This document shows, in pieces, positions 1 to 10,367 of a stretch of DNA of 64,000 nucleotides. The notes beneath the pieces are model-generated. The model saw only the letters and a list, made by a program, of their open reading frames with translations. It did not search any database and was not told the DNA's origin. The DNA lies in the NCBI GenBank assembly GCA_028714475.1, contig JAQTNC010000002.1:14609-78608 (forward strand), given 5' to 3'. This stretch comes from Patescibacteria group bacterium. GTDB lineage: Bacteria; Patescibacteriota; Patescibacteriia; SG8-24. The number at the start of each line of letters is the position of its first letter. Within the stretch, counting starts at the first letter, position 1. A program made the translations under genes and the position numbers.

Positions 1-30
1 CCATGTGGCGAAAAGGCGCAAGCCACACCG

Positions 31-51
31 CAAGACCTGACCCCGTTTTCC
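31..51 (-). repeat. Copy A1 of recurring motif (reverse orientation): caagacctgaccccgttttcc, the reverse complement of GGAAAACGGGGTCAGGTCTTG
   Basis: Direct read. Matches the 3611/5837/7816 copies over ~20 nt. Confidence 0.6.
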
Positions 52-164
52 ACACTACCGCCGCCTAGTGATGTTCCGAGCGGAATAAAAGGAGGGTCTT
101 GCTGAATGTTTTCACAATTTGAAATATGTGAAATTCGATAATACATGCTATTCTTGATTCACAT

Positions 165-186
165 CCCAAGACCTAATCCCAAAACG
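165..186 (-). repeat. Degenerate copy A2 of the same motif (cccaagacctaatcccaaaacg), 130 bp from A1 in the same orientation
   Basis: Direct read. Resembles the right arm of the 3611-3666 palindrome (tcaagatctaacccaaaa). Confidence 0.4.
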
Positions 187-388
187 TGTGGAATACCCAC
201 TTGTTTGGTCAAAAACCCGCCATCCATCGATGACGGGTTATTGAGTTAGCGCGACGCCACGATGCCCGGAGCCTCAAAAACGACCTTGGCAGGGAATGGA
301 ACTGGGTAAAATCAGCGCGCTGCATTTTATGTAAAAATCATATATAGTCTAATCACAGAAAAGAGGCGGCATTGCTAATAAGATCCAT

Positions 389-1126
389 ATGGATATAAAC
401 GAATCCCACCCAAACGCTAAAAGCAATCTTAAGAATAGAACGGAAATTTTGGAATATTCCCTCACCATCGAAGATGCCATTGATTCCTTGTTGCTCATGT
501 ATTTGGGCATATATGATAAAAAGAAATCCAAAGGGCCTCAAGTATCAAAAACAAAATTTAACGTTAGTTTTCAAAGCAAAATAGATTTGTTGTTTGACAT
601 AGATGTCCTGTCAAAAGAAGAACATTCAGATTTAGAATTATTAATGAATTTTCGAAACAAATTTCTTCACGAAATTAGATGTAATTCATATTTATCCGTA
701 GTAAATCTTTTTGATAATGGAATTAAGAATAGATTTAAGAAATATTTAAATAAAAATGGCAGCATAGAAGAGGAAGATTCATGTAAATGGGGGTGCTTCA
801 ATTTATATGGCAAGAATCTTCAGACAATTCAAAAAAAGGTTAAGGAAAAAATCGACCAAACTCAAGACAAGGCCAGTCTCGTTAATACTCTTCTAGCAAA
901 GAACGTAAGAATGATTGACATGTCTTTTGGTTTTGTTACTGACTTGCTTAAGGAAATGAAAAAGGCCGAATTAGAAAATCGTAAAATTCGAGCATTGGTA
1001 AGTTTGGTAGCGTCAAAATGTAAAGATTACACCGACGGTATAGGGGTTGATAGGAGAATGGCAAAATTAGATAAAAGAATGAAGAAGCTTCTTTCCGAGG
1101 AAAGAATAAAAAAGTACCTTAAATAA
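389..1126 (+). CDS. Hypothetical Lys-rich protein encoded by a strongly AT-rich gene, with a HEPN-like R-x4-H motif (RNKFLH, residues 89-94). Candidate effector/partner of the downstream ATPase.
   Basis: 245-aa ORF, the only long ORF here. GC about one third versus 60%+ in the flanks. 12-nt gap to the next gene on the same strand. No recognisable housekeeping family. Confidence 0.5.
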   Translation: MDINESHPNAKSNLKNRTEILEYSLTIEDAIDSLLLMYLGIYDKKKSKGPQVSKTKFNVSFQSKIDLLFDIDVLSKEEHSDLELLMNFRNKFLHEIRCNSYLSVVNLFDNGIKNRFKKYLNKNGSIEEEDSCKWGCFNLYGKNLQTIQKKVKEKIDQTQDKASLVNTLLAKNVRMIDMSFGFVTDLLKEMKKAELENRKIRALVSLVASKCKDYTDGIGVDRRMAKLDKRMKKLLSEERIKKYLK

Positions 1127-1138
1127 AGATGCTCCGGT

Positions 1139-3445
1139 ATGCGGTTCAGAAAAATCAAGGAAATTATGGACAGCGACGCATTTGACTCCTTCGACTGGAA
1201 GGGGCCAGATTTTAGGCGCTATAACTTGATTTACGGGTGGAACGGCTCGGGAAAGACCACGACATCCAGAATCTTTCGGTCAATAGAGTGCGGCGCGGTC
1301 GCGACAGAATTGGGTGCGACCCAGTTTCAGGTGGTGACGGAGGACGGAATTATGAGGAACGTCGACATCACGGCTCCGTCCAATGGCGTCAGAGTATTCA
1401 ACGACGACTTCGTTAAGGAAAACCTAGAGTTCCATGAGTCCAAAACCAAGCAAATCCTCATAGTCGGCAATGCTAGCATAGAGGCGGAGGGCAAAATCAG
1501 GTCTCTGGAAGAGCGCAGAAAGGAAGCTGGCATAGAAAGGAAAGTGTTGGAGGAAAGCCTGGGCAAAATCAAGCCGCTCGACAAGATTCGCAAGGCCGCC
1601 AGCGACGAGGTGGTGAAGCAGTTTGCCAACACGCCGCTCGGCACCAGCGACTACAGCGGTCGCAAGTACAACAGAAAGGAAGTCGATGACCTTCTCGCGA
1701 AAAACATTATCACCGAGGCGAATGTCAAGTCGCTGGTTATCAATAAGCAGGAGGATATCGACCGCCGCCGCGAGGTAATTAAGAGCCAGCGCCAGAAGGT
1801 GCCGGTCTTTCCCGAAACGGTTGAGGACTTCTCGCAGGTGTTTGCCGACGCGAACCTGCTTCTTCAGGCCAGTCCGGCGGCAGAAAAAATTGACGAGCTT
1901 TCTAACGATGACGAGAGGAGATTGTGGGTGGAGGACGGCTACGCACTTCACACCGCTCGAGGCTCCCACGGCTGCCTATTTTGCGGTAAGACGCTCGACG
2001 GCGGATTCCTTGAGCGTCTCGCGAGGTTCTTCACAAAAGAGATGGACGAGGTCAAGAAGAATGTCGATGTAGCCATCGCACTACTGGACACGTCGCCCAT
2101 GCGCGGCGAGACGTCACAGCCGGACGCGGGTCTGCTGCTGCCCGACCTGAGCATCGAGTATCTATCCTTCAAGGCAGAGGCCGACAGGTACGCGGTGGAG
2201 ATTCGGGCGGCGATCGGCAAGATGACGCAGGCGCTCAAAGACAAACGGCAAAACGTCCAAGCGGTAGCACCCGGGCTTAAGATCGTAGAATACCCATCAA
2301 AGGCCATCACTGGTTTCAACGAGGTCATCGCAAAGATGGTCGCCACGATACACAAGCACAACGAGCAGATCGACAAGAAAATCGAGGCCGCCAAGGAGAT
2401 AGAGCTGCACATCGTCGCCAAGACGCTCGTGGAGAAGGACTACTTCTCGACAAAGGCCGAACATGATTCCCTGACTACGAAAATCGGCGGCCTGACCACA
2501 GAGATTGACGAGATCGAGCGTAAGGTCGCCGGTTTAAAATCGGCCATCCTAGACTCGGCGATCGCCATCGGGAAGATAAACGGGATGCTCGAAGAGTTTT
2601 TCGGGCGGGGCCACATTTGCCTCGAACCTGCCACGGGCACCGACTTGGGTTATGTTCTAAAGAGAAGGGGCAAGAATGCGAGGAACCTGAGCGAGGGCGA
2701 GAAGAACGCCGTGGCCTTGGCGTTCTTCCTGACAAAGCTCGATGAGGGAGACTTCAGCAAGAAGGATGGTTCGGTGGTCGTCGACGACCCCGTCGACAGT
2801 CAAGACGAGCTGTTCCTATTCCGCGCGTTCAGCCTAATCAAGCGGCATGTTAGCCCCTGCGGCCAAGTAATACTGCTCACGCACAACTTCCCGCTGTTCA
2901 ACTTGGTGCGTGACTGGCTTTCTCACGAGAACCGTAAGCGTCACAAGACCAAAAATGACTCGGTGTCCGAATTCTTCATGATGAGGTGTCTGAGAAGTGA
3001 GTCCAGTCACGAGACCGTTGTCGAGCCGCTCCATGACTTGCTGATGAAGTATAAAACGGAATACCAGTATCTATTCCACCAGCTGTACAAATTCGGCGCT
3101 GGCGAGGCTGGCGTCGACGTGCCCCTGATTCCGAACATCGGTCGCAAGGTGCTCGAATACTTCGCCAGCTTCAAGTGGTCGTGCGACGTGGGCGAGGAAC
3201 TCGGGGCGATTGTCCAAGAGAAATACGTTGACGCCCCTAACGCCACCACCGATCAAAAGGCCAACGGGGACTTCATAAAGAAATTCGTGGACGAGTATTC
3301 GCACGGCAAGGACTTCGGCAGGCCGATAACGGCGGCTACTTTTGAGGCAAAAAACGTAGCGGTTAACGTGCTCAAGCTGATTGAGACCGCCGACCCCGAA
3401 CACTACGACCGGCTCGTCGCTCTTTGCAAGGAGGACGACGAGTGA
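1139..3445 (+). CDS. RloC/PrrC-like (AAA_13-type) Rad50/SMC-fold ABC ATPase with coiled-coil insert and CxxC zinc hook
   Basis: 768 aa. Walker A GWNGSGKTT (aa 33-41, nt 1235-1261). ~450-aa charged, helical insert carrying CLFC at aa 279-282 (nt 1973-1984). ABC-signature-like LSEGEKNAV. Walker B VVVDDPVDS. H-loop LLTHN. ~180-aa C-terminal tail containing RSESSH (R-x4-H). Confidence 0.7.
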   Translation: MRFRKIKEIMDSDAFDSFDWKGPDFRRYNLIYGWNGSGKTTTSRIFRSIECGAVATELGATQFQVVTEDGIMRNVDITAPSNGVRVFNDDFVKENLEFHESKTKQILIVGNASIEAEGKIRSLEERRKEAGIERKVLEESLGKIKPLDKIRKAASDEVVKQFANTPLGTSDYSGRKYNRKEVDDLLAKNIITEANVKSLVINKQEDIDRRREVIKSQRQKVPVFPETVEDFSQVFADANLLLQASPAAEKIDELSNDDERRLWVEDGYALHTARGSHGCLFCGKTLDGGFLERLARFFTKEMDEVKKNVDVAIALLDTSPMRGETSQPDAGLLLPDLSIEYLSFKAEADRYAVEIRAAIGKMTQALKDKRQNVQAVAPGLKIVEYPSKAITGFNEVIAKMVATIHKHNEQIDKKIEAAKEIELHIVAKTLVEKDYFSTKAEHDSLTTKIGGLTTEIDEIERKVAGLKSAILDSAIAIGKINGMLEEFFGRGHICLEPATGTDLGYVLKRRGKNARNLSEGEKNAVALAFFLTKLDEGDFSKKDGSVVVDDPVDSQDELFLFRAFSLIKRHVSPCGQVILLTHNFPLFNLVRDWLSHENRKRHKTKNDSVSEFFMMRCLRSESSHETVVEPLHDLLMKYKTEYQYLFHQLYKFGAGEAGVDVPLIPNIGRKVLEYFASFKWSCDVGEELGAIVQEKYVDAPNATTDQKANGDFIKKFVDEYSHGKDFGRPITAATFEAKNVAVNVLKLIETADPEHYDRLVALCKEDDE

Positions 3446-3610
3446 TGAGCGTCGGCGGTGCTAATCAAACCGTCCTTCAGGACGAAGTTCGACAGCAGTC
3501 TCTCGAGTATGGCCCGCTTCTCGTCCCTCGTGCCCTCCTTGAGCACGTATTTGGCGTACGTCCTGACGTTGAACCCGGCCGCCGCCTTAGCCAGCTCGTC
3601 TGTCATGCCC

Positions 3611-3666
3611 CGGAAACGGGGTCAGGTCTTGAATCATCAGTTTTCATGTTAATCAAGATCTAACCC
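3611..3666 (+). repeat. Copy B of recurring motif (cggaaacggggtcaggtcttgaatcatcagtttt), forming an imperfect palindrome with tcaagatctaaccc 20 nt downstream
   Basis: Direct read. Preceded by the small hairpin ccccg-gaaa-cgggg. Sits about 165 nt after the stop of the 768-aa gene. Confidence 0.6.
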
Positions 3667-3725
3667 AAAATCCTGACGACCTTTGTCCAACGCTTCTTCG
3701 GCGCGGTCTGCAACATCTAGTCATG

Positions 3726-3734
3726 TGCTATAAT
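3726..3734 (+). promoter_or_regulatory. Extended -10 element TGcTATAAT upstream of the Zn-ribbon gene
   Basis: TGcTATAAT about 33 nt upstream of the ATG at 3767. RBS GGGAGGA 7 nt before the ATG. Confidence 0.4.
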
Positions 3735-3766
3735 ACAATCGGTCCTTTTTGAAGGGAGGAACCGAG

Positions 3767-4189
3767 ATGTTGACCATCAGATGTCACTTCCATCCGCGCT
3801 ATCGGGCCCATAGGGAGCCCAAGAACGATTGTGAGACCTGCCGGCTCCTTTACGCCTTGGCTCATCAGCAAGACGGGAACACCGAAGAGATTCTTAGGCG
3901 GCTCGGTTCAGGGCTCGCCGGAACAACTGGTGACGACAAGATGTCTGTAGCCCTGGAAGGCATGGAAACGGGCAGGGCCTCGACCCTGACGGTGAAGTGC
4001 AGCCATCACCAATATCAGGCCACCCGGAAACCAGGGTGGAATTGCGATGCCTGCTGGCTCCTCTTTGTGCTCAAGTTCCAAGCCCACAAGGACGGAGAAA
4101 GGCGACTCGGTCCCTTCAATCCGTACGCCTACGTCATCGGTCACGTGAATCTGAAAGCAGCCTGTGCCGCCCTGCTGATTGTCAGGTAG
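3767..4189 (+). CDS. Small protein with two tandem Zn-ribbon-like repeats (C-x-H-H/F-H ... C-x2-C)
   Basis: 140 aa. Repeat 1 is CHFHPRYRAHREPKNDCETC and repeat 2 is CSHHQYQATRKPGWNCDAC, each followed by a W/RLL(Y/F)xL motif. Strong RBS. Own promoter. Confidence 0.5.
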   Translation: MLTIRCHFHPRYRAHREPKNDCETCRLLYALAHQQDGNTEEILRRLGSGLAGTTGDDKMSVALEGMETGRASTLTVKCSHHQYQATRKPGWNCDACWLLFVLKFQAHKDGERRLGPFNPYAYVIGHVNLKAACAALLIVR

Positions 4190-4291
4190 ACGGACGGCAA
4201 GCATCTTCGGCTCCCGCTGGGAGCTTTTTGTTTAGCCCAATCGTCATGAAAATAATGGCTCGAATCCCAGCCTTGCGCCTAAACTGCAGGG

Positions 4292-4320
4292 TTGACAAAA
4301 TGCTTGTTATCAGATATACA
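4292..4320 (+). promoter_or_regulatory. Sigma70-like promoter: TTGACA, 17-bp spacer, TATACA
   Basis: ttgacaaaatgcttgttatcagatataca, 60 nt upstream of the 4380 ORF. Confidence 0.45.
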
Positions 4321-4379
4321 TTTACTGTTCTGCCCTCAATCTTTTCGGAAAACACACATAGAAGGCGAGGCAATACGAA

Positions 4380-4565
4380 ATGAGCGACAAGCCGGCTGGA
4401 ACTTATCAGTGCGTTATCTGCTCGGCTACTTGGGACGGGTCACAGTTGCACGAAGACCCGATGAGTACGGGCCAGCGGTGGACTTGCGGCGATCCTTTCT
4501 GCGGGGCCAATGTCCGCAAAATCAGCGACGAGCCAAAAGCAAAGAAGAGTCCCGGTCAAACGTAA
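4380..4565 (+). CDS. Small Zn-ribbon protein (CxxC ... CGDPFC)
   Basis: 61-aa ORF. YQCVICSATW and WTCGDPFCGAN cysteine pairs. Consensus promoter upstream. Confidence 0.4.
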   Translation: MSDKPAGTYQCVICSATWDGSQLHEDPMSTGQRWTCGDPFCGANVRKISDEPKAKKSPGQT

Positions 4566-4738
4566 TGAAAGGCAGACGAATTCTTGAACCCGCCGTAGTC
4601 CATTGGACGAAAGCGGGTTTTTTAGCGTCCAAAATGCGGAACCATACAATTTAAGACTCCAAAAACACCCGTTCGTCATGGCATATCCAGGCGGTATGCT
4701 GGTATACTAAACCAGCGAATCAACCCTAAGAAACCCAA

Positions 4739-5857
4739 ATGAACAAGGCCATTCTATACAATGTTATCGGCGTACTGGCAGTCTTGGCGGTAATATTTTT
4801 CAAGATACCGGCGGTCTGGGTGGTTCTCGGGATTTTGGCGGTTTTGGTCATGGTCATCGTCAGCCCCTTTGTGCCCGCCGTCGAAAGCATCCCGAAGGGG
4901 TTCGTCGAAAAGAAATTCGACACGGGGAAAGTCATCCTGAATTACGTGGAAGGCCCGGACAACGGCCCGCCAATGCTTTTTATTCCGGGACAAACGGAAT
5001 TCTGGCAAGGCTATAAACTGGTCATGCCCAACTTCGCCAAGAAGTATCACGTCTTCGTCGTAGACGTCAGGGGGCACGGGAAATCGACCAAAACTCCTGG
5101 CGAATATTCCTACAACATCATCGGCGAAGACCTGAAGGCTTTTTTGGAAACGGTCATCAAGAAACCGGCGATCGTGTCCGGTTTGTCTTCCGGGGCCGTT
5201 CTCGCCTTGTGGTTGGCGGCCAACGCCCCGGAGTCGGTCTCGGCCGTCGTGAGCGAGGATCCGCCGCTCTTTTCCGCCATGTGGCCGCACATCAAGGAGG
5301 AAAAATACATGTATCGCCTGTTTGAAATCATGGTTGAGTGTCTCGGCAAGCCAAAACGGGACATCTTGGACTACTTCATGAAGCAGGGGATTCCCAAAGA
5401 CGGTCAGGATGAGCTGTTGCTGATTCCACCCTGGATCGCCAAGTTCATCGTGGGTGATTTTGAACTCAACAAAAGATTTCGCCCGTCAAAAAAGTACGAC
5501 GTGCCTTTGGCTCCCTTCAGCGGCCGGGTCGGCCTCAAGTTCATCAGTGAGTACGACGTTGATTTTTCCCGGGCCACGATTGACGGCCGGTTGACGGCAG
5601 GGTTCAATCCCGAGGAGACGTTAAAAAAAATCAACTGCCCCGTATTGTTGATTCAGGCGCTTTGGTCCAGGCACGCGACCTGGGGACTGCTGGGGGCGCT
5701 GGATGACAAAGACGTTGAAAAAATCCGCGCCCTGGTAAAAAACCTCCAGGTCGTAAAAGTTAAAGCCATCCATGATGTTCACTTGTCCAAGCCAAAAATT
5801 TTCATCAAGGCGGTCAATGAATATCTGGATAGTTTACGGAACGGGGTCAGGTCTTGA
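4739..5857 (+). CDS. Membrane-anchored alpha/beta-hydrolase fold protein
   Basis: 372 aa. Two N-terminal hydrophobic helices. HGxGxS-type VVDVRGHGKS. GxSxG nucleophile elbow GLSSGA. Stop codon TGA lies inside motif copy C. Confidence 0.75.
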   Translation: MNKAILYNVIGVLAVLAVIFFKIPAVWVVLGILAVLVMVIVSPFVPAVESIPKGFVEKKFDTGKVILNYVEGPDNGPPMLFIPGQTEFWQGYKLVMPNFAKKYHVFVVDVRGHGKSTKTPGEYSYNIIGEDLKAFLETVIKKPAIVSGLSSGAVLALWLAANAPESVSAVVSEDPPLFSAMWPHIKEEKYMYRLFEIMVECLGKPKRDILDYFMKQGIPKDGQDELLLIPPWIAKFIVGDFELNKRFRPSKKYDVPLAPFSGRVGLKFISEYDVDFSRATIDGRLTAGFNPEETLKKINCPVLLIQALWSRHATWGLLGALDDKDVEKIRALVKNLQVVKVKAIHDVHLSKPKIFIKAVNEYLDSLRNGVRS

Positions 5858-5869
5858 ACTATCAGTTTG
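5837..5869 (+). repeat. Copy C of recurring motif (cggaacggggtcaggtcttgaactatcagttt)
   Basis: Matches copy B over >30 nt. Contains the stop codon of the hydrolase gene. Confidence 0.65.
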
Positions 5870-6021
5870 ACCAGTCGTCGCCTCATTGTCGCCGCTGGCC
5901 CTTTTTTGCTGTAATTTACCAACTAAAAGGCCTACGGTGTAGGCGGGCCGTTAAGTGTAATCACGGCGATAATCGGTTGTTGTATTGGTTTGTCGTAGTG
6001 GTTAGTAGAGACGGCGGAGAC

Positions 6022-6053
6022 AAAAGACGGGTTTAACCCGTCTTTTGTTTTTG
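6022..6053 (+). terminator. Rho-independent terminator (aaagacggg-ttta-acccgtcttt plus T-run)
   Basis: Perfect 9-bp stem followed by TTTTGTTTTT. Confidence 0.6.
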
Positions 6054-6112
6054 ACCCGCGACGGCGTCGGCGTTACAATGCCCGTATAATTCTTCACCTT
6101 CTTTTTGCTCAT

Positions 6113-6922
6113 ATGCGTGCAAAACATCTCATCTCCACTTCATTGTTATTGGCATCGCTCGCGCTCGTCGGCTTTGGTTGTGGCCAGAAGGCGTCCGTAT
6201 CCACGAACGCGTCGCCGGCCGCCAACAAGCAGCCCGCCGCGCCGGCCGAGAGGCCGAGCACTACGACTTCGGACTCCTGCGGCAACCCGTATTACCCGTT
6301 CAAGCCCGGCTTGACCATCGCCTATAGCGTCACGCCGCCAGCGAACACCCCGGGAGATGCCGACTACACGGTCCGCACCGTCAGCGTATCCGGCAACAAG
6401 GCCACGGTGCGCACCGAGATGGCCGGCGGCGTCACTGCCGACATGGAGGCCGACTGCGCGAACGGCTCCGTTGAGATGAAGGGGTCGTCTGGGCTCGGCG
6501 CCGACGTCCAGGGGTTCAAGACGACCGTCATCTCGTCGAGCGGCACATTCATGCCAGCGGACGTCTCGGCCGGTTCCACCTGGAGCAACTCGAAGACGGT
6601 GAGGATGGATTCGGCCGGCGGCTCGGCCGCGGCTGCGGCCATGGGTTCGCTCATCATGACTACGACGGAGCAGAGCCGGGCGGTCGGCGAGGAATCGGTT
6701 ACGGTTCCGGCCGGCACGTATAAGGCGATGAAGGTCGAGTCGACGCAAACCACGACCTCCAAGTTTTCGGCTACGCCGGCGGGCACGCAGTCCAGCGAGA
6801 TGCCGCCGTCGACTTATACGTCCACCGAATGGTTGGTGAAAGGCATCGGCATGGTGAAATCCGTGACGAAGGGCGAGGGCGGCACCTCGACCACCGAGGC
6901 GAAGTCGATCACCGGGCTTTGA
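6113..6922 (+). CDS. Ser/Thr-rich lipoprotein, function unknown
   Basis: 269 aa. Signal peptide with lipobox LVGFGC. Low-complexity T/S/A-rich sequence. The antisense ORF 6146-7003 is judged a GC shadow. Confidence 0.6.
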   Translation: MRAKHLISTSLLLASLALVGFGCGQKASVSTNASPAANKQPAAPAERPSTTTSDSCGNPYYPFKPGLTIAYSVTPPANTPGDADYTVRTVSVSGNKATVRTEMAGGVTADMEADCANGSVEMKGSSGLGADVQGFKTTVISSSGTFMPADVSAGSTWSNSKTVRMDSAGGSAAAAAMGSLIMTTTEQSRAVGEESVTVPAGTYKAMKVESTQTTTSKFSATPAGTQSSEMPPSTYTSTEWLVKGIGMVKSVTKGEGGTSTTEAKSITGL

Positions 6923-7147
6923 CGCGTAACGGCACCTGCTTAACGTACGGAACGGAAAAGAGGACGTCCGGCTCGGGCGTCCTCTTAATGTGCGTCGGCT
7001 CACCCGAAAGTTTCCGGCAGAAAGCCCTCAACAGCTTCGATTTTGCAGCCGAGCAGCCGCCGCCGGCGAAGCCCCGGGCTGCGGCCCGGGTGAGCGGCGG
7101 GTGAACCGGAATACCTACCCCAAACATTTGGTGTAGAATAGAATCAT

Positions 7148-7546
7148 ATGCAAAACAACATGCCCAAATTCCTTTATTGGACCCCAAGAATTCTATCGAT
7201 ATTGTTTATTTGCTTTTTGGCAATATTTTCGTTGGATGTAATTTCTCCCGGATTAGGTTTTTGGCAAATAGCTATTGGATTATTCATGCATAATATTCCG
7301 GTATTCGTCTTGACGGCCGTTTTGGTTATTTCGTGGAAACACGAACTCGTCGGCGGAATCGTTTTTAGCCTAGTCGGGCTACTCTTTGCCGCCAGGATGG
7401 TGATTACTATGCTGACGAACCGGTTTGAATGGGGTGGGCTGTTTGGAGCCCTGCCGCTGGCCGTTCCAGCGCTTCTGATAGGAATATTATTTATTACTGG
7501 GTGGCTTAAAAAGAGGACTGGCCGTAGTGATGTATCCGTGAAATAG
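7148..7546 (+). CDS. Small integral membrane protein (4 predicted helices) encoded by a relatively AT-rich gene
   Basis: 132 aa with hydrophobic helices. Lower GC than the flanks. Confidence 0.5.
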   Translation: MQNNMPKFLYWTPRILSILFICFLAIFSLDVISPGLGFWQIAIGLFMHNIPVFVLTAVLVISWKHELVGGIVFSLVGLLFAARMVITMLTNRFEWGGLFGALPLAVPALLIGILFITGWLKKRTGRSDVSVK

Positions 7547-7601
7547 GTTCTGACTTCGTCTACAGTACGGACACAAAAAGTCAGAACTTGTTGGGATGTG
7601 A

Positions 7602-7925
7602 ATGCCTATGCGCCGATTCAACATCAACGAGCTCGCCGACTGGCAGTCGCCGGAGCGGCGCGATGACTTGCCCAAGTGTGAATTCTCGGGCAAGGACATG
7701 CACCCGAACGAGCGGAGCGCAAAGGCCGCCGCAACTTGGCGCGAATCGCAGGCCGGGACGCCGATGGGCGTCTATTTTTGCGTGTGGTGCAAAGCTTGGC
7801 ACCTGACGTCTTCCCGGGTAACGGGGTCAGGTCTCGGACGTGAATTCCGCGGCGTCCCGACCCCCCTTACCGACCATCGGCACCAGCCTTCTCGCCATAT
7901 TGACATTGCATTTGTAACCTCCTAA
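7602..7925 (+). CDS. Small Cys-containing protein (CEFSGK ... CVWCKAW). The C-terminal 29 codons read through motif copy D.
   Basis: 107-aa ORF. Preceded by the hairpin gttctgactt-N21-aagtcagaac. Confidence 0.35.
   Translation: MPMRRFNINELADWQSPERRDDLPKCEFSGKDMHPNERSAKAAATWRESQAGTPMGVYFCVWCKAWHLTSSRVTGSGLGREFRGVPTPLTDHRHQPSRHIDIAFVTS
7816..7866 (+). repeat. Copy D of recurring motif (gggtaacggggtcaggtctcgg), forming an imperfect inverted repeat with cgtcccgacccccc
   Basis: Direct read. The TTGA of copies B/C is TCGG here. Confidence 0.55.
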
Positions 7926-7959
7926 GGTTGATTTAAAGGTCTTTTTGTGGAGGTGCAAG

Positions 7960-8907
7960 ATGAAAACACCGATCTTCCCGCAGGCGCTGCTTGGTACGGG
8001 CATAGTGCCGTTTGGCGACCTGAAAATCAGCGTCGCGAGCCCCACGAGTCAGTACGGTCACGGCGTCTTCGAAGGCGTCAGGGCATATCCGGCCAGCCGC
8101 GGCGGCATGATCGTTCCCGCCTTGCGCCAACACATGGCCAGAATGTTTCGTTCGGCGCGGGCCTTGTTCTCGGACTTCGCGATTCCCATCACGCAAGAGG
8201 AGGCGTGCGAAAGCGTCCGTCGGCTGGTCGAGACCAACGACATCAACGAGCCGGTGTACATCAGGCCGTCGCTGCTCATCCCGGTCGCCTGCACCATCCA
8301 TCTTGAGCCGGTGGAGGGACCGAAAGAGCTCATCTTCTCCGCCTACGCGCAGAGAAGCAGCCGGTTCAGGAGAGAGGGCCTGTCCTGCATCGTCTCGCCG
8401 CTTCGCAAGCCACACGCGCGGGTGGCTCAGCACAAGGCTTGTGGCATGTACGTGTACCTAGGCATGGCTAGCGCCATGGCCGAGGAGGCCGGCTACGACG
8501 AGAGCATTCTGCTCGATCAGGACGGCCTGGTCGCCGAAGGCACCTATCAGAACATCGTTTTCGAGAAGGATGGGGTGCTGTGGGAACCGCGCCGAGAGGG
8601 GCGGCCCATCATGCCGAGCATCACTCGGGACGTCGTGCGGTGTCTGATTGCGGAAGATATGCCCGGTGGCAGGGAAATTGTGCCCACGGACGTCACGCCG
8701 CAGACGATGGTCAGGGCCGATTCGCTCATGCTGTTGGGCACCGCGTCGGAGATATGTTTCGCGCGCAAGGTTTGCTTAGACGGCGTCGATTATCAGATCG
8801 GTTCCGGCGAGGACACACCGACGCCCTTCGTGGCCGCGGTTCGGGATTCGTACGTCCGGTTTGTCAGCGGGGAACTTGGGCACGAAGACCTCTTGGTTCG
8901 GGTCTAG
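7960..8907 (+). CDS. Class IV aminotransferase (branched-chain / D-amino-acid aminotransferase family)
   Basis: 315 aa. FEGVRAY motif and overall BCAT-like layout. RBS GGAGGTG. Confidence 0.8.
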   Translation: MKTPIFPQALLGTGIVPFGDLKISVASPTSQYGHGVFEGVRAYPASRGGMIVPALRQHMARMFRSARALFSDFAIPITQEEACESVRRLVETNDINEPVYIRPSLLIPVACTIHLEPVEGPKELIFSAYAQRSSRFRREGLSCIVSPLRKPHARVAQHKACGMYVYLGMASAMAEEAGYDESILLDQDGLVAEGTYQNIVFEKDGVLWEPRREGRPIMPSITRDVVRCLIAEDMPGGREIVPTDVTPQTMVRADSLMLLGTASEICFARKVCLDGVDYQIGSGEDTPTPFVAAVRDSYVRFVSGELGHEDLLVRV

Positions 8908-9052
8908 CGCCACCGTCTTCATAATAACCGCCCTGTCTCAAGGGGCGGTTTATTAGTTAATTGCGCCCCGAGCCTCGGCCTTGCCATTTTTTGGCTATGT
9001 GGTAAAGCTAGAGATAGTGTTCGGCCTTTACAGGCAAGAGAGGAGTCGCGTC

Positions 9053-10165
9053 ATGATTATCGGCTTACCCAAGGAGATCAAGAAGGCGGAGTATCGCGTA
9101 GCCTTGACCCCGGCCGGAGCAAGGGAACTGACGCAGTGCGGCCATGATGTTTTAGTCGAGATGGGAGCTGGCCTCGGTAGCGGTTTCCCCGACGAAGCCT
9201 ATGTTCAGGCAGGCGCGTGGATCATCACCACGCCTGGGGAGATTTTCGGCCGTTCGGAACTGGTGCTTCACGTGAAGGAGCCCCAACCTTGCGAACGGAA
9301 CCTTATTCGCGAGGGACAAGTGCTGGTCGAATACCTGCACTTGGCCGCGGATCAGGGTCTCACGGAGGCGCTCATTCGAAGTCGGTGCGTCGCCTTCGGT
9401 CTGGAGACATTCCGGGGAACCAGGGATCCGTTGCCGCTACTCACCCCGATGAGCGAAGTGGCCGGATGTCTGGCGGCCCAGCAGGCCGCGAAGTACCTCG
9501 AACGGCCGATGGGCGGACGCGGCATCCTGCTCGGCGGCGTGACCGGCGTCGAACCGGCGACCGCGGTCGTCATCGGCGGCGGTGTTGTCGGCGAGAACGC
9601 GGCGCGAAAGCTCGCCGGGTTGGGCGCGAGAGTGCACGTCCTGGACACCAACCTGGATCGACTGCGCCGTCTGCGCGAGATCATGCCGGCGAACTGCGTG
9701 ATGCTGAAGTCCGACGAGGCCACCATTCGGCGCCTGCTTCCGTTGGCTGACGCCGTCATCGGCGCGGTGCTGGTCGCTGGCGCGAAGGCACCGCGGCTCA
9801 TCACGCGGGACATGCTTTCCACCATGAAGCCCGGCTCGATTATCGTGGACGTGGCCATTGACCAGGGCGGCTGCTGCGAGACCTCACGGCCCACGACCCA
9901 CGAGAACCCGACCTATGTCGTGGACGGCGTCGTTCATTATTGCGTCGCCAACATGCCCGGCTGTGTCCCATGGAGCTCCACCATGGCGCTCACGAACGCC
10001 ACGTTGCCGTACATCCTGGCGATTGCCAATCTCGGTTGGCGCCAAGCCGCCCGCGAACGGCCCGACATCCGCGCTGGCATCAACGTCCTCAACGGTCAGA
10101 TTGTCTGCCCGGAGGTCGCTAAAGCCTTCGGTATGCCCTTTGCCAGTATCGACGATCTGCTCTAG
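9053..10165 (+). CDS. ald: Alanine dehydrogenase
   Basis: 370 aa. N-terminus MIIGLPKEIKKAEYRVALTPAG. Rossmann GGGVVG motif. RBS AGAGGAG. Confidence 0.85.
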   Translation: MIIGLPKEIKKAEYRVALTPAGARELTQCGHDVLVEMGAGLGSGFPDEAYVQAGAWIITTPGEIFGRSELVLHVKEPQPCERNLIREGQVLVEYLHLAADQGLTEALIRSRCVAFGLETFRGTRDPLPLLTPMSEVAGCLAAQQAAKYLERPMGGRGILLGGVTGVEPATAVVIGGGVVGENAARKLAGLGARVHVLDTNLDRLRRLREIMPANCVMLKSDEATIRRLLPLADAVIGAVLVAGAKAPRLITRDMLSTMKPGSIIVDVAIDQGGCCETSRPTTHENPTYVVDGVVHYCVANMPGCVPWSSTMALTNATLPYILAIANLGWRQAARERPDIRAGINVLNGQIVCPEVAKAFGMPFASIDDLL

Positions 10166-10203
10166 TCGGCCAGCTTCCACCGAGCAGTCTCGTCCTCTCC
10201 ATG

Positions 10204-10229
10204 CCAGGCGCTATCGCCTGGCTTTTTTG
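10204..10229 (+). terminator. Rho-independent terminator (ccaggcg-ctat-cgcctgg plus TTTTTTG)
   Basis: 7-bp stem plus T-run, 39 nt after the ald stop. Confidence 0.7.
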
Positions 10230-10258
10230 TTTGAATTACGTTGCTGGGTCTCGTTGAA

Positions 10259-10275
10259 CCCCCCAAGACCTGACC
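10259..10275 (-). repeat. Copy E of recurring motif (reverse orientation; ccccccaagacctgacc)
   Basis: Reverse complement GGTCAGGTCTTGGGGGG. Lies between the ald terminator and the kinase gene. Confidence 0.5.
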
Positions 10276-10367
10276 TTATTTAAGAAAGATGCCCCCACTT
10301 TCCCGGGAAAATCAGCTTCACAAATGGCCGTTATTTTGCTAAAATTAAATAGACAAAGAAACCCCTT

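Follow-up and report, generated by a model that had tools for sequence, protein, structure and literature searches.

A predicted HEPN ribonuclease gene beside an RloC-family gene in a Patescibacteria genome, and the recurrence of this pairing with divergent RloC-like ATPases

Close to the start of a 64,000-nt stretch of Patescibacteria DNA (contig JAQTNC010000002.1, positions 14,609 to 78,608; the whole stretch is referred to here as the window), two co-oriented open reading frames (ORFs) are separated by a 12-nt spacer. The first, gene 1 (245 aa), encodes a predicted stand-alone HEPN ribonuclease (RNase), and the second, gene 2 (768 aa; MDD5251156.1), encodes a member of the RloC family, whose characterised representatives are anticodon nucleases acting suicidally in phage defence (Table 1). 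The source contig is 144 kb long and belongs to a metagenome-assembled genome (MAG) that carries the NCBI label 'Patescibacteria group bacterium'. RloC is widespread, yet its natural trigger, targets and partners are poorly understood, and it is treated as a single-gene system both in the literature and in PADLOC. An earlier note on this DNA had described the pair as a candidate undescribed defence module. As regards gene 2 this no longer applies, as RloC has been characterised since 2008 and is catalogued as PADLOC PDC-S06; gene 2's family is thus the known component, and the new one is the HEPN family of gene 1 as a putative accessory.

The two genes and their families

The spacing, shared orientation and unusual composition of the genes reported in the earlier note were confirmed. 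Gene 1 has a G+C content (GC) of 0.32 (0.33 at third codon positions) against a window average of 0.589, and lysine makes up 14.7% of its residues, while gene 2 has a GC of 0.547 (0.73 at third codon positions). By composition gene 1 is foreign to this genome, which for this gene supports the horizontal acquisition suggested earlier; the GC of gene 2 is host-like. In the other paired loci described below both genes are low in GC (HEPN gene 0.25-0.28, partner 0.30-0.34), whereas those of the window differ by 23 points, which indicates that the window pair is a recent assembly in which a low-GC HEPN gene was placed before an rloC of host-like GC. No terminator-like site was found in the 12-nt gap, which suggests that the genes share a transcript. 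A second MAG (Candidatus Pacebacteria) and two SRA assemblies also contain, at 100% identity, a segment of 3-3.8 kb with the pair; their contigs stop near the borders of the segment. Rfam gave no match anywhere in the window.

Gene 2 belongs, by its sequence, to the RloC family. Four features make up the published definition (PMC2610378), namely ATP-binding cassette (ABC) motifs, a CX2C zinc hook within a coiled-coil insert, an Arg-X3-Glu-X36-52-His triad near the C-terminus in which Ser often precedes the His, and a length of 658-897 aa. All of these are present in gene 2, including a length within the stated range. The protein matches Pfam AAA_13 (PF13166) over aa 15-725 (4e-113, 380 bits, cut-off 36), and its best PADLOC match is the PDC-S06 model PDLC04894 (2.1e-135; aa 1-763 against profile positions 1-738 of 740). 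Other PADLOC matches are weak (LmuB, 3e-15; PrrC, 1.8e-9, aa 516-615, the ABC part only; AriA, 2.5e-4), and the match to SMC_N, at 22 bits, is under the cut-off of 40. Several relatives carry the JGI name 'wobble nucleotide-excising tRNase'. In size class, ABC motifs and AAA_13 membership gene 2 resembles the RloC proteins of Geobacillus kaustophilus and Acinetobacter baylyi (Davidov & Kaufmann 2008, PMC2610378; Klaiman et al. 2012, PMC3458546), and by analogy with these it may be given a putative wobble-nucleotide-excising tRNase activity that is Zn-responsive and regulated by a DNA-dependent ATPase.

Residue conservation, taken across 47-57 relatives of gene 2, agrees with this assignment. 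All motifs listed in the earlier note occur at the residues given there (RNKFLH 89-94 in gene 1; GWNGSGKTT 33-41, CLFC 279-282, LSEGEKNAV 517-525, VVVDDPVDS 546-554, LLTHN 579-583 and RSESSH 619-624 in gene 2). In the C-terminal half of the ABC head, L517, S518, E521, D549, D550, S554, D556, T581 and H582 are invariant. In the tail, R669, S721/H722 and H755 are conserved in 47/47 relatives and E673 in 45/47, and the anticodon-nuclease triad reads R669-X3-E673-X48-S721-H722, the 48-residue spacer between E673 and H722 lying inside the published 36-52. The corresponding residues of G. kaustophilus RloC are R692/E696/H737, with C291 as the hook cysteine (PMC2610378) where gene 2 has C279/C282. 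RSESSH had been pointed out as a second R-x4-H motif; it is present, but it is not conserved (R 9/47, H 6/47) and is not catalytic, the published triad pattern being found instead at 669/673/722.

An AlphaFold2 model of gene 2 (predicted local distance difference test score 85.9) has a split head, a helical insert whose CxxC lies in a loop, and a C-terminal domain that is also helical. The insert, earlier put at ~450 aa, measures ~380 aa (~aa 110-490) by the secondary structure of the model. Foldseek returned Rad50, SMC heads, RecN and SbcC as the top solved-structure matches, so that the Rad50 plan with a zinc hook, with both hook cysteines conserved, stands as first described. Searches of PDB sequences with gene 2, gene 1 and the gene-1 family profile gave no significant match, and no close relative of gene 2 has a solved structure. 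Relatives of gene 2 are patchily distributed and occur in variable contexts beside methyltransferases, recombinases and integrases.

A separate observation concerns relatives at 46-47% identity (L056:4050-5880 and the P0074 locus; Candidatus Campbellbacteria and others), which lie divergently beside two DNA methyltransferase genes (N6_N4_Mtase, MethyltransfD12); PDDEXK_1 or DUF2779 genes follow. This neighbourhood may be a restriction-linked context for gene 2's RloC subfamily.

Gene 1 has no Pfam, PADLOC, NCBIfam or meaningful PHROG match (no family at E<=1 beyond chance level), and none of the profiles in these libraries for described HEPN families, among them Abi2, AbiU2, AbiV, Swt1, LA2681, DUF86 and MtlR, matched it. 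Its prediction as a HEPN protein with putative metal-independent endoribonuclease activity is based on motif and modelled fold, as anticipated by the earlier note. The HEPN motif is defined as Rx4-6H with a polar residue following the R (PMC3710099), and in gene 1 the residues R89, N90 and H94 are invariant across 32 relatives, which makes RNKFLH more than a chance occurrence. The predicted fold is all-alpha and MtlR-like, with an N-terminal HEPN-like bundle (~aa 8-120) and long C-terminal helices (aa 129-245); by two methods the best fold matches were MtlR, YggD, DUF86 and HepT. The N-terminal domain thus structurally resembles MtlR/YggD and HepT, and the Rx4H is shared with HepT toxins; on the other hand there is no significant sequence match (best, the family profile against MtlR, E 0.4), and gene 1 has an extra C-terminal helical extension of 115 aa. 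No mannitol operon accompanies gene 1, and no MNT nucleotidyltransferase antitoxin gene, as in HepT-MntA, was found as a neighbour in the window or in the neighbour census.

The earlier description of gene 1 as an orphan does not hold. A word-indexed search gave 67 homologues, and an exhaustive profile search gave 695 cluster representatives, 412 of them at E<=1e-10. The best 150 members listed are all stand-alone proteins of at most ~280 aa and, fragments aside, mostly 220-270 aa. Hosts are mainly Bacteroidota, with some Patescibacteria, Ignavibacteria, Chlorobi, cyanobacteria and archaea. Gene 1 is therefore a member of a new, uncatalogued family of ~700 clusters of predicted HEPN RNases. 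A paralogous origin of gene 1 from the HEPN-type tail of gene 2 was considered and is not supported (hhalign probability 0.1%). Nor is a viral origin, since no gene-1 relatives were found in IMG/VR and gene 2 matched only a PHROG of unknown function.

Table 1. Positions of the gene pair, its motifs and the dispersed repeat in the window.
Feature	Position (nt)	Strand	Remarks
Left copy of short dispersed repeat, CAAGACCTGACCCCGTTT	31..48	+	relation to the pair uncertain
Gene 1	389..1126	+	245 aa; stand-alone predicted HEPN RNase, uncatalogued family
R89-N90-K-F-L-H94 (gene 1)	653..670	+	predicted HEPN catalytic motif; Rx4H, polar residue after R
Spacer between gene 1 and gene 2	1127..1138		12 nt
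Gene 2	1139..3445	+	768 aa; RloC family: Rad50-like ABC ATPase head, zinc-hook coiled coil, C-terminal anticodon-nuclease domain
Walker A GWNGSGKTT, aa 33-41 (gene 2)	1235..1261	+	G33, N35, G38, K39 invariant among relatives
Zinc hook C279-L-F-C282 (gene 2)	1973..1984	+	both Cys 47/47; loop between helices H258-274 and H290-297 of the coiled-coil insert
C-terminal half of ABC head (gene 2)	2687..2887	+	LSEGE aa 517-521, Walker B/D-loop VVVDDPVDS 546-554, H-loop THN 581-583
C-terminal anticodon nuclease-type domain, aa ~633-768 (gene 2)	3035..3442	+	putative; R669 at 3143-3145, E673 at 3155-3157, S721-H722 at 3299-3304; H755
Right repeat copy	3614..3631	-	perfect 18-nt inverted match to 31-48; the two copies bracket the gene pair
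Further degenerate repeat copies	5839-5856, 7819-7836, 10264-10281	-, -, +	17-nt core

Recurrence of the pairing

An adjacent, co-oriented gene for an RloC-like ATPase occurs at 18 of the 107 gene-1-family loci that remained after 90% non-redundancy, the window included. With rloC present in only ~8% of genomes (PMC2610378), chance adjacency would be expected far less than once in 107 loci. All 18 paired loci are found among relatives at least 39% identical to gene 1, where they account for roughly half of the informative loci, and the two closest relatives (60% and 54% identity) each lie directly downstream of an AAA_13 gene. Both gene orders occur, with the genes co-oriented throughout; most gaps lie between -4 and +2 nt, the extremes reaching +67, and overlaps of 1-4 nt are frequent. 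The recurrence of the pair in unrelated genomes, which the earlier note had asked to be checked, was accordingly borne out with respect to frequency and range (at least five ATPase subfamilies), with the restriction that the pairing is not obligate, the four closest relatives of gene 2 being solitary.

This result replaces an earlier negative one. A tblastn search with gene 2 gave no match in 49 genome loci holding gene-1 relatives, and BLASTP clustering of the neighbours at such loci gave no neighbour clusters, because the partner ATPases are too divergent for BLAST. The non-recurrence that these searches first suggested was overturned by the closest relatives, by metagenome loci and by a Pfam/PADLOC census of neighbours, for the Pfam part of which the locus set was enlarged by 67 metagenome loci. 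Downstream of gene-1-family members this census identified SMC_N in 13/92 cases, AAA_21 in 11, AAA_23 in 8 and AAA_13 in 5, against no more than 2 for any other defence family; upstream, MmeI-type enzymes were found in 8/89. Sampling from the ATPase side, which is free of bias from how the loci had been found, gave a consistent picture for an 885-aa family of partners, in which relatives at 85% and 69% identity have a HEPN gene immediately upstream (E ~1e-80). The flanks of these two differ, one having no restriction gene nearby and the other following a type I HsdR; within one ATPase clade the pair persists while the flanking restriction genes vary.

The partners fall into at least five groups that are barely alignable to one another, namely PDC-S06 model 04894 (gene 2 of the window), model 04895 (L057, L059), model 04891 (L080, 4e-299), a weaker PDC-S06 type (L068, L069) and the 885-aa SMC_N/AAA_23 type (L015, L074, L076 and others). 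At one further locus (L073:641-4197) a gene-1-family HEPN gene is followed by Ppl (PHP plus ABC ATPase; PADLOC Ppl 5e-120), which has a different architecture. A conserved CxxC and an R-x3-E...H tail are present in all partner groups except Ppl, which has neither, and on this ground the partners other than Ppl are classed as RloC-like. A role of gene 1 in providing a nuclease that its partners lack was rejected, since the RloC-like partners all have an R-x3-E...H tail of their own.

Restriction genes are absent next to the window pair, as previously noted, whereas elsewhere the pair is frequently linked to MmeI-type or type I enzymes. The clearest arrangement is a Bacteroidota operon (L015, L080, L083, L086 and L113; e.g., L086:521-7687) in which a full-length MmeI-type restriction-modification enzyme is followed by the HEPN protein and an RloC-like ATPase of 885 or 874 aa, with 1-4-nt overlaps; in L080, L083 and L086 the next gene encodes RhuM (1e-107). 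Most members of the gene-1 family are solitary and often lie in defence islands, with AbiGi, AbiH, Abi_2, AbiTii, PLD, PIN, HD-CE, TIR and MmeI among the families nearby. Overall, sequence comparison indicates a real association between the two families, one that is specific for ABC ATPases of the RloC-like kind, modular and facultative.

As a side observation on the 885-aa family, TIR-domain genes lie just downstream of its ATPases whether a HEPN gene is present or not (L132:8076-9440; L134:7878-9302, the latter fused to Mrr_cat).

Possible roles of the HEPN protein

The reading that we favour, and hold to be moderately probable by analogy with characterised systems, is that of an RloC-type sensor and anticodon nuclease with a co-transcribed HEPN protein serving as an accessory or back-up RNase. 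It follows the mechanism of characterised RloC, in which sensing by the ATPase and zinc hook leads to release of the anticodon nuclease and tRNA cleavage (PMC2610378, PMC3458546, PMC3874168). The Rad50-like head and zinc-hook coiled coil of gene 2 would keep its C-terminal RNase (R669/E673/H722) silent until a signal of infection at the DNA level (DNA ends, breaks or failed restriction, for example) releases it; the released enzyme would then cut tRNA anticodon loops and halt translation, resulting in abortive infection. Gene 1 would contribute a second, separately encoded HEPN RNase (R89/H94), most likely as an accessory effector of the ATPase. It could dock on the ATPase through its long C-terminal helices, in the manner of the nuclease subunits of Mre11-Rad50/SbcCD or of AriB on AriA, or it could act as a back-up RNase with a different RNA target, hindering phage escape by tRNA repair or phage-encoded tRNAs. 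Comparative genomics is the only ground on which we infer a coupling, physical or regulatory, between the two proteins, and the RNA targets and trigger proposed here are likewise extrapolated.

Considered in this way, the pair is a plausible two-gene version of a known defence theme, in which an ABC ATPase is accompanied by a nuclease from a separate gene; restriction loci with HEPN back-up effectors are also known. PARIS (AriA/AriB), Lamassu (LmuB/LmuA), Septu, Gabija and HEC-01..03 share the design in which an ABC ATPase is the sensor and the nuclease is separate, and PARIS also ends in tRNA cleavage, but the effectors there are Toprim, Cap4, HNH, NERD or PIN proteins, while here a HEPN protein is predicted. 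The window pair was not assigned to Lamassu or PARIS, as the LmuB, AriA and mad3 hidden Markov model matches are weak, equivalents of LmuC and AriB are lacking and gene 1 has no PADLOC match. PrrC-EcoprrI (the prr locus) likewise has an anticodon nuclease regulated by an ABC ATPase, with the same catalytic triad pattern, and its restriction-linked layout is echoed by the MmeI/HsdR-HEPN-RloC-like-RhuM operons of relatives. PrrC is however only 341-416 aa long, has neither coiled coil nor zinc hook and always lies within a type Ic hsd locus, whereas gene 2 has 768 aa with a zinc-hook insert and no hsd genes within 10 kb.

Canonical RloC is another close counterpart. Like it, gene 2 belongs to a family rarely linked to restriction genes; the difference is that canonical RloC has been presented as a single-gene, self-regulated enzyme, while the window and 17 other loci have a separate HEPN gene tightly attached. 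The same holds for PDC-S06, to which gene 2 (full-length, PDLC04894) and other partners (models 04895 and 04891) match, and which is catalogued as a single-gene candidate system with no PADLOC model for gene 1. A HEPN plus RloC-like pairing was not found in the literature searched, subscription journals being outside the scope of that search. A HEPN gene that recurs in tight linkage with RloC-like ATPases of at least five divergent groups would provide the RloC family with a new accessory or effector component, and the ~700 clusters of the HEPN family, for which none of the four libraries searched has a profile, would gain a name and a context.

Several observations weigh against such a functional coupling and could be accounted for if the genes were independent neighbours, i.e., a self-sufficient RloC and an Abi-like HEPN toxin acting autonomously, which tends to land in the same defence or restriction hot-spots, with the shared transcript accidental and no interaction between the two. 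Members of both families are for the most part solitary. Around 80% of gene-1 relatives lack both an ATPase neighbour and any other conserved one, and they lie among many other defence genes. A HEPN gene is lacking in Firmicute relatives of the 885-aa family (43% and 38% identity). The four closest relatives of gene 2 (77, 59, 47 and 46% identity) are solitary in unrelated contexts, with no gene-1 relative encoded in any frame at their loci, and homology to the 77% relative ends exactly at the ORF ends with no flanking synteny; RloC of gene 2's subfamily therefore normally works without a HEPN gene. The window pair is compositionally chimeric, its two genes having different compositional histories. 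Even HEPN genes that are close relatives differ in their type of partner, an argument against tight co-evolution, and since the RloC-like ATPases already have their own nuclease tail, the HEPN protein fills no gap left by a missing effector. If this explanation is correct, the locus is an ordinary RloC gene beside an ordinary Abi-like toxin. The specificity of the adjacency speaks against it, being far above chance (18/107 loci, and 13/92 for SMC_N downstream), as do the constant co-orientation with many short overlaps and the retention of the pair within one ATPase clade despite changing restriction flanks. We regard independent neighbours as the main alternative, though as less probable than the coupling.

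A bolder version of the coupling can be put forward tentatively. The gene-1 family may be a dedicated, exchangeable RNase subunit of RloC-like zinc-hook ATPases, an RNA-targeting counterpart of Mre11 on Rad50, whose C-terminal helices dock and whose HEPN site is switched on by the DNA-sensing ATPase cycle. The layout resembles that of Mre11-Rad50 and SbcD-SbcC, where a small nuclease gene lies immediately upstream of a zinc-hook ABC ATPase gene, often with overlapping stop and start codons, and the gene 2 model best matches Rad50. In contrast to those complexes, the partner here is a HEPN protein (RNase-type) and not the Mre11 phosphoesterase, the ATPase has an RNase tail of its own, and the context is mobile and defence-related as opposed to core repair. 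If the subunit proposal were true, HEPN and RloC-like proteins would form a two-component abortive-infection system that is distinct, widespread (Bacteroidota, Patescibacteria) and equipped with two different RNases, and that is often wired to MmeI or type I restriction enzymes and RhuM in a multi-layer unit. With this pair, the question of whether Rad50-like defence ATPases govern an RNase encoded in trans becomes tractable.

We regard as unlikely a regulatory role in which gene 1, as an MtlR-like HEPN protein, would bind and silence the RloC nuclease, its mRNA or its tRNA substrate until infection, similarly to EcoprrI for PrrC. The closest fold matches, MtlR and YggD, are indeed non-catalytic regulators, HEPN domains act as dimers and the RloC tail is classed as HEPN (PMC3710099), and nucleases of the PrrC type are known to be kept inactive by a partner (PMC2610378). 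However, R-N-x3-H is invariant in the gene-1 family, whereas MtlR-type regulators typically lose the motif (PMC3710099); self-regulation through its own ATPase and zinc hook is reported for RloC, relatives close to gene 2 exist without the HEPN gene, and gene 1 has no profile similarity to the tail of gene 2. Finally, a housekeeping explanation, with gene 2 as a DNA-repair ATPase (Rad50/SbcC/RecN/SMC) next to an unrelated hypothetical gene, would suit the structural matches and the weak SMC_N match but is rejected as highly improbable, given the far stronger AAA_13 score, the conserved anticodon nuclease-type tail that is absent from Rad50/SbcC, the lack of an Mre11/SbcD phosphoesterase gene adjoining gene 2, and a patchy distribution in variable contexts with no synteny with relatives outside the ORF. 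None of the outcomes that the earlier note had named as fatal to its proposal was obtained, as gene 2 is no housekeeping RecN or SbcC and gene 1 matches no non-nuclease family.

Surroundings of the pair

The other neighbours in the window comprise genes for an alpha/beta hydrolase, a DUF3108-like protein, a DUF7670 protein and an aminotransferase, with no defence genes among them. A short repeat, CAAGACCTGACCCCGTT(T), occurs in five copies in the first 10.3 kb and in none in the remaining 54 kb (0.04 expected). The two outermost left copies bracket the pair as an 18-nt inverted repeat, yet an interpretation as transposon ends is not supported, since the 17-nt core recurs three more times with unrelated flanks. 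The sequences around the copies do not align, breaks in independent assemblies lie near copies, and the loci of gene-2 relatives lack the repeat. It could represent a site of recombination, a repetitive extragenic palindromic (REP)-like element or a regulatory site.

The first part of the window (1-10300) is compositionally mosaic, with GC in 300-nt segments ranging from 0.28 to 0.69 while the rest is steady at 0.58-0.62; for instance, the DUF7670 gene (7148-7546, GC 0.44) adjoins the 269-aa DUF3108-like gene (GC 0.64). This suggests that the first 10 kb are a variable region near the contig end. The second MAG reaches 343 nt further upstream of window position 1 and has there a 99-aa partial ORF (L051:1-301) with no Pfam match that is low in GC by eye, so the low-GC island may extend past the start of the window, its left border lying outside the view.

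Three small ORFs follow the pair or overlap its end. One of 67 aa (3403-3606, minus strand) overlaps the last 43 nt of gene 2 and has no family match; an independent assembly (L050) has it annotated as a gene. The other two, of 146 aa (3749-4189, plus strand) and 61 aa (4380-4565, plus strand), are rich in Cys/His pairs and lack a Pfam match. Two similar segments, HFHPRY..CETCRLLYAL and CSHHQY..CDACWLLFVL, occur in the 146-aa ORF, and the 61-aa ORF contains CVIC...CGDPFC; both may encode zinc-ribbon proteins.

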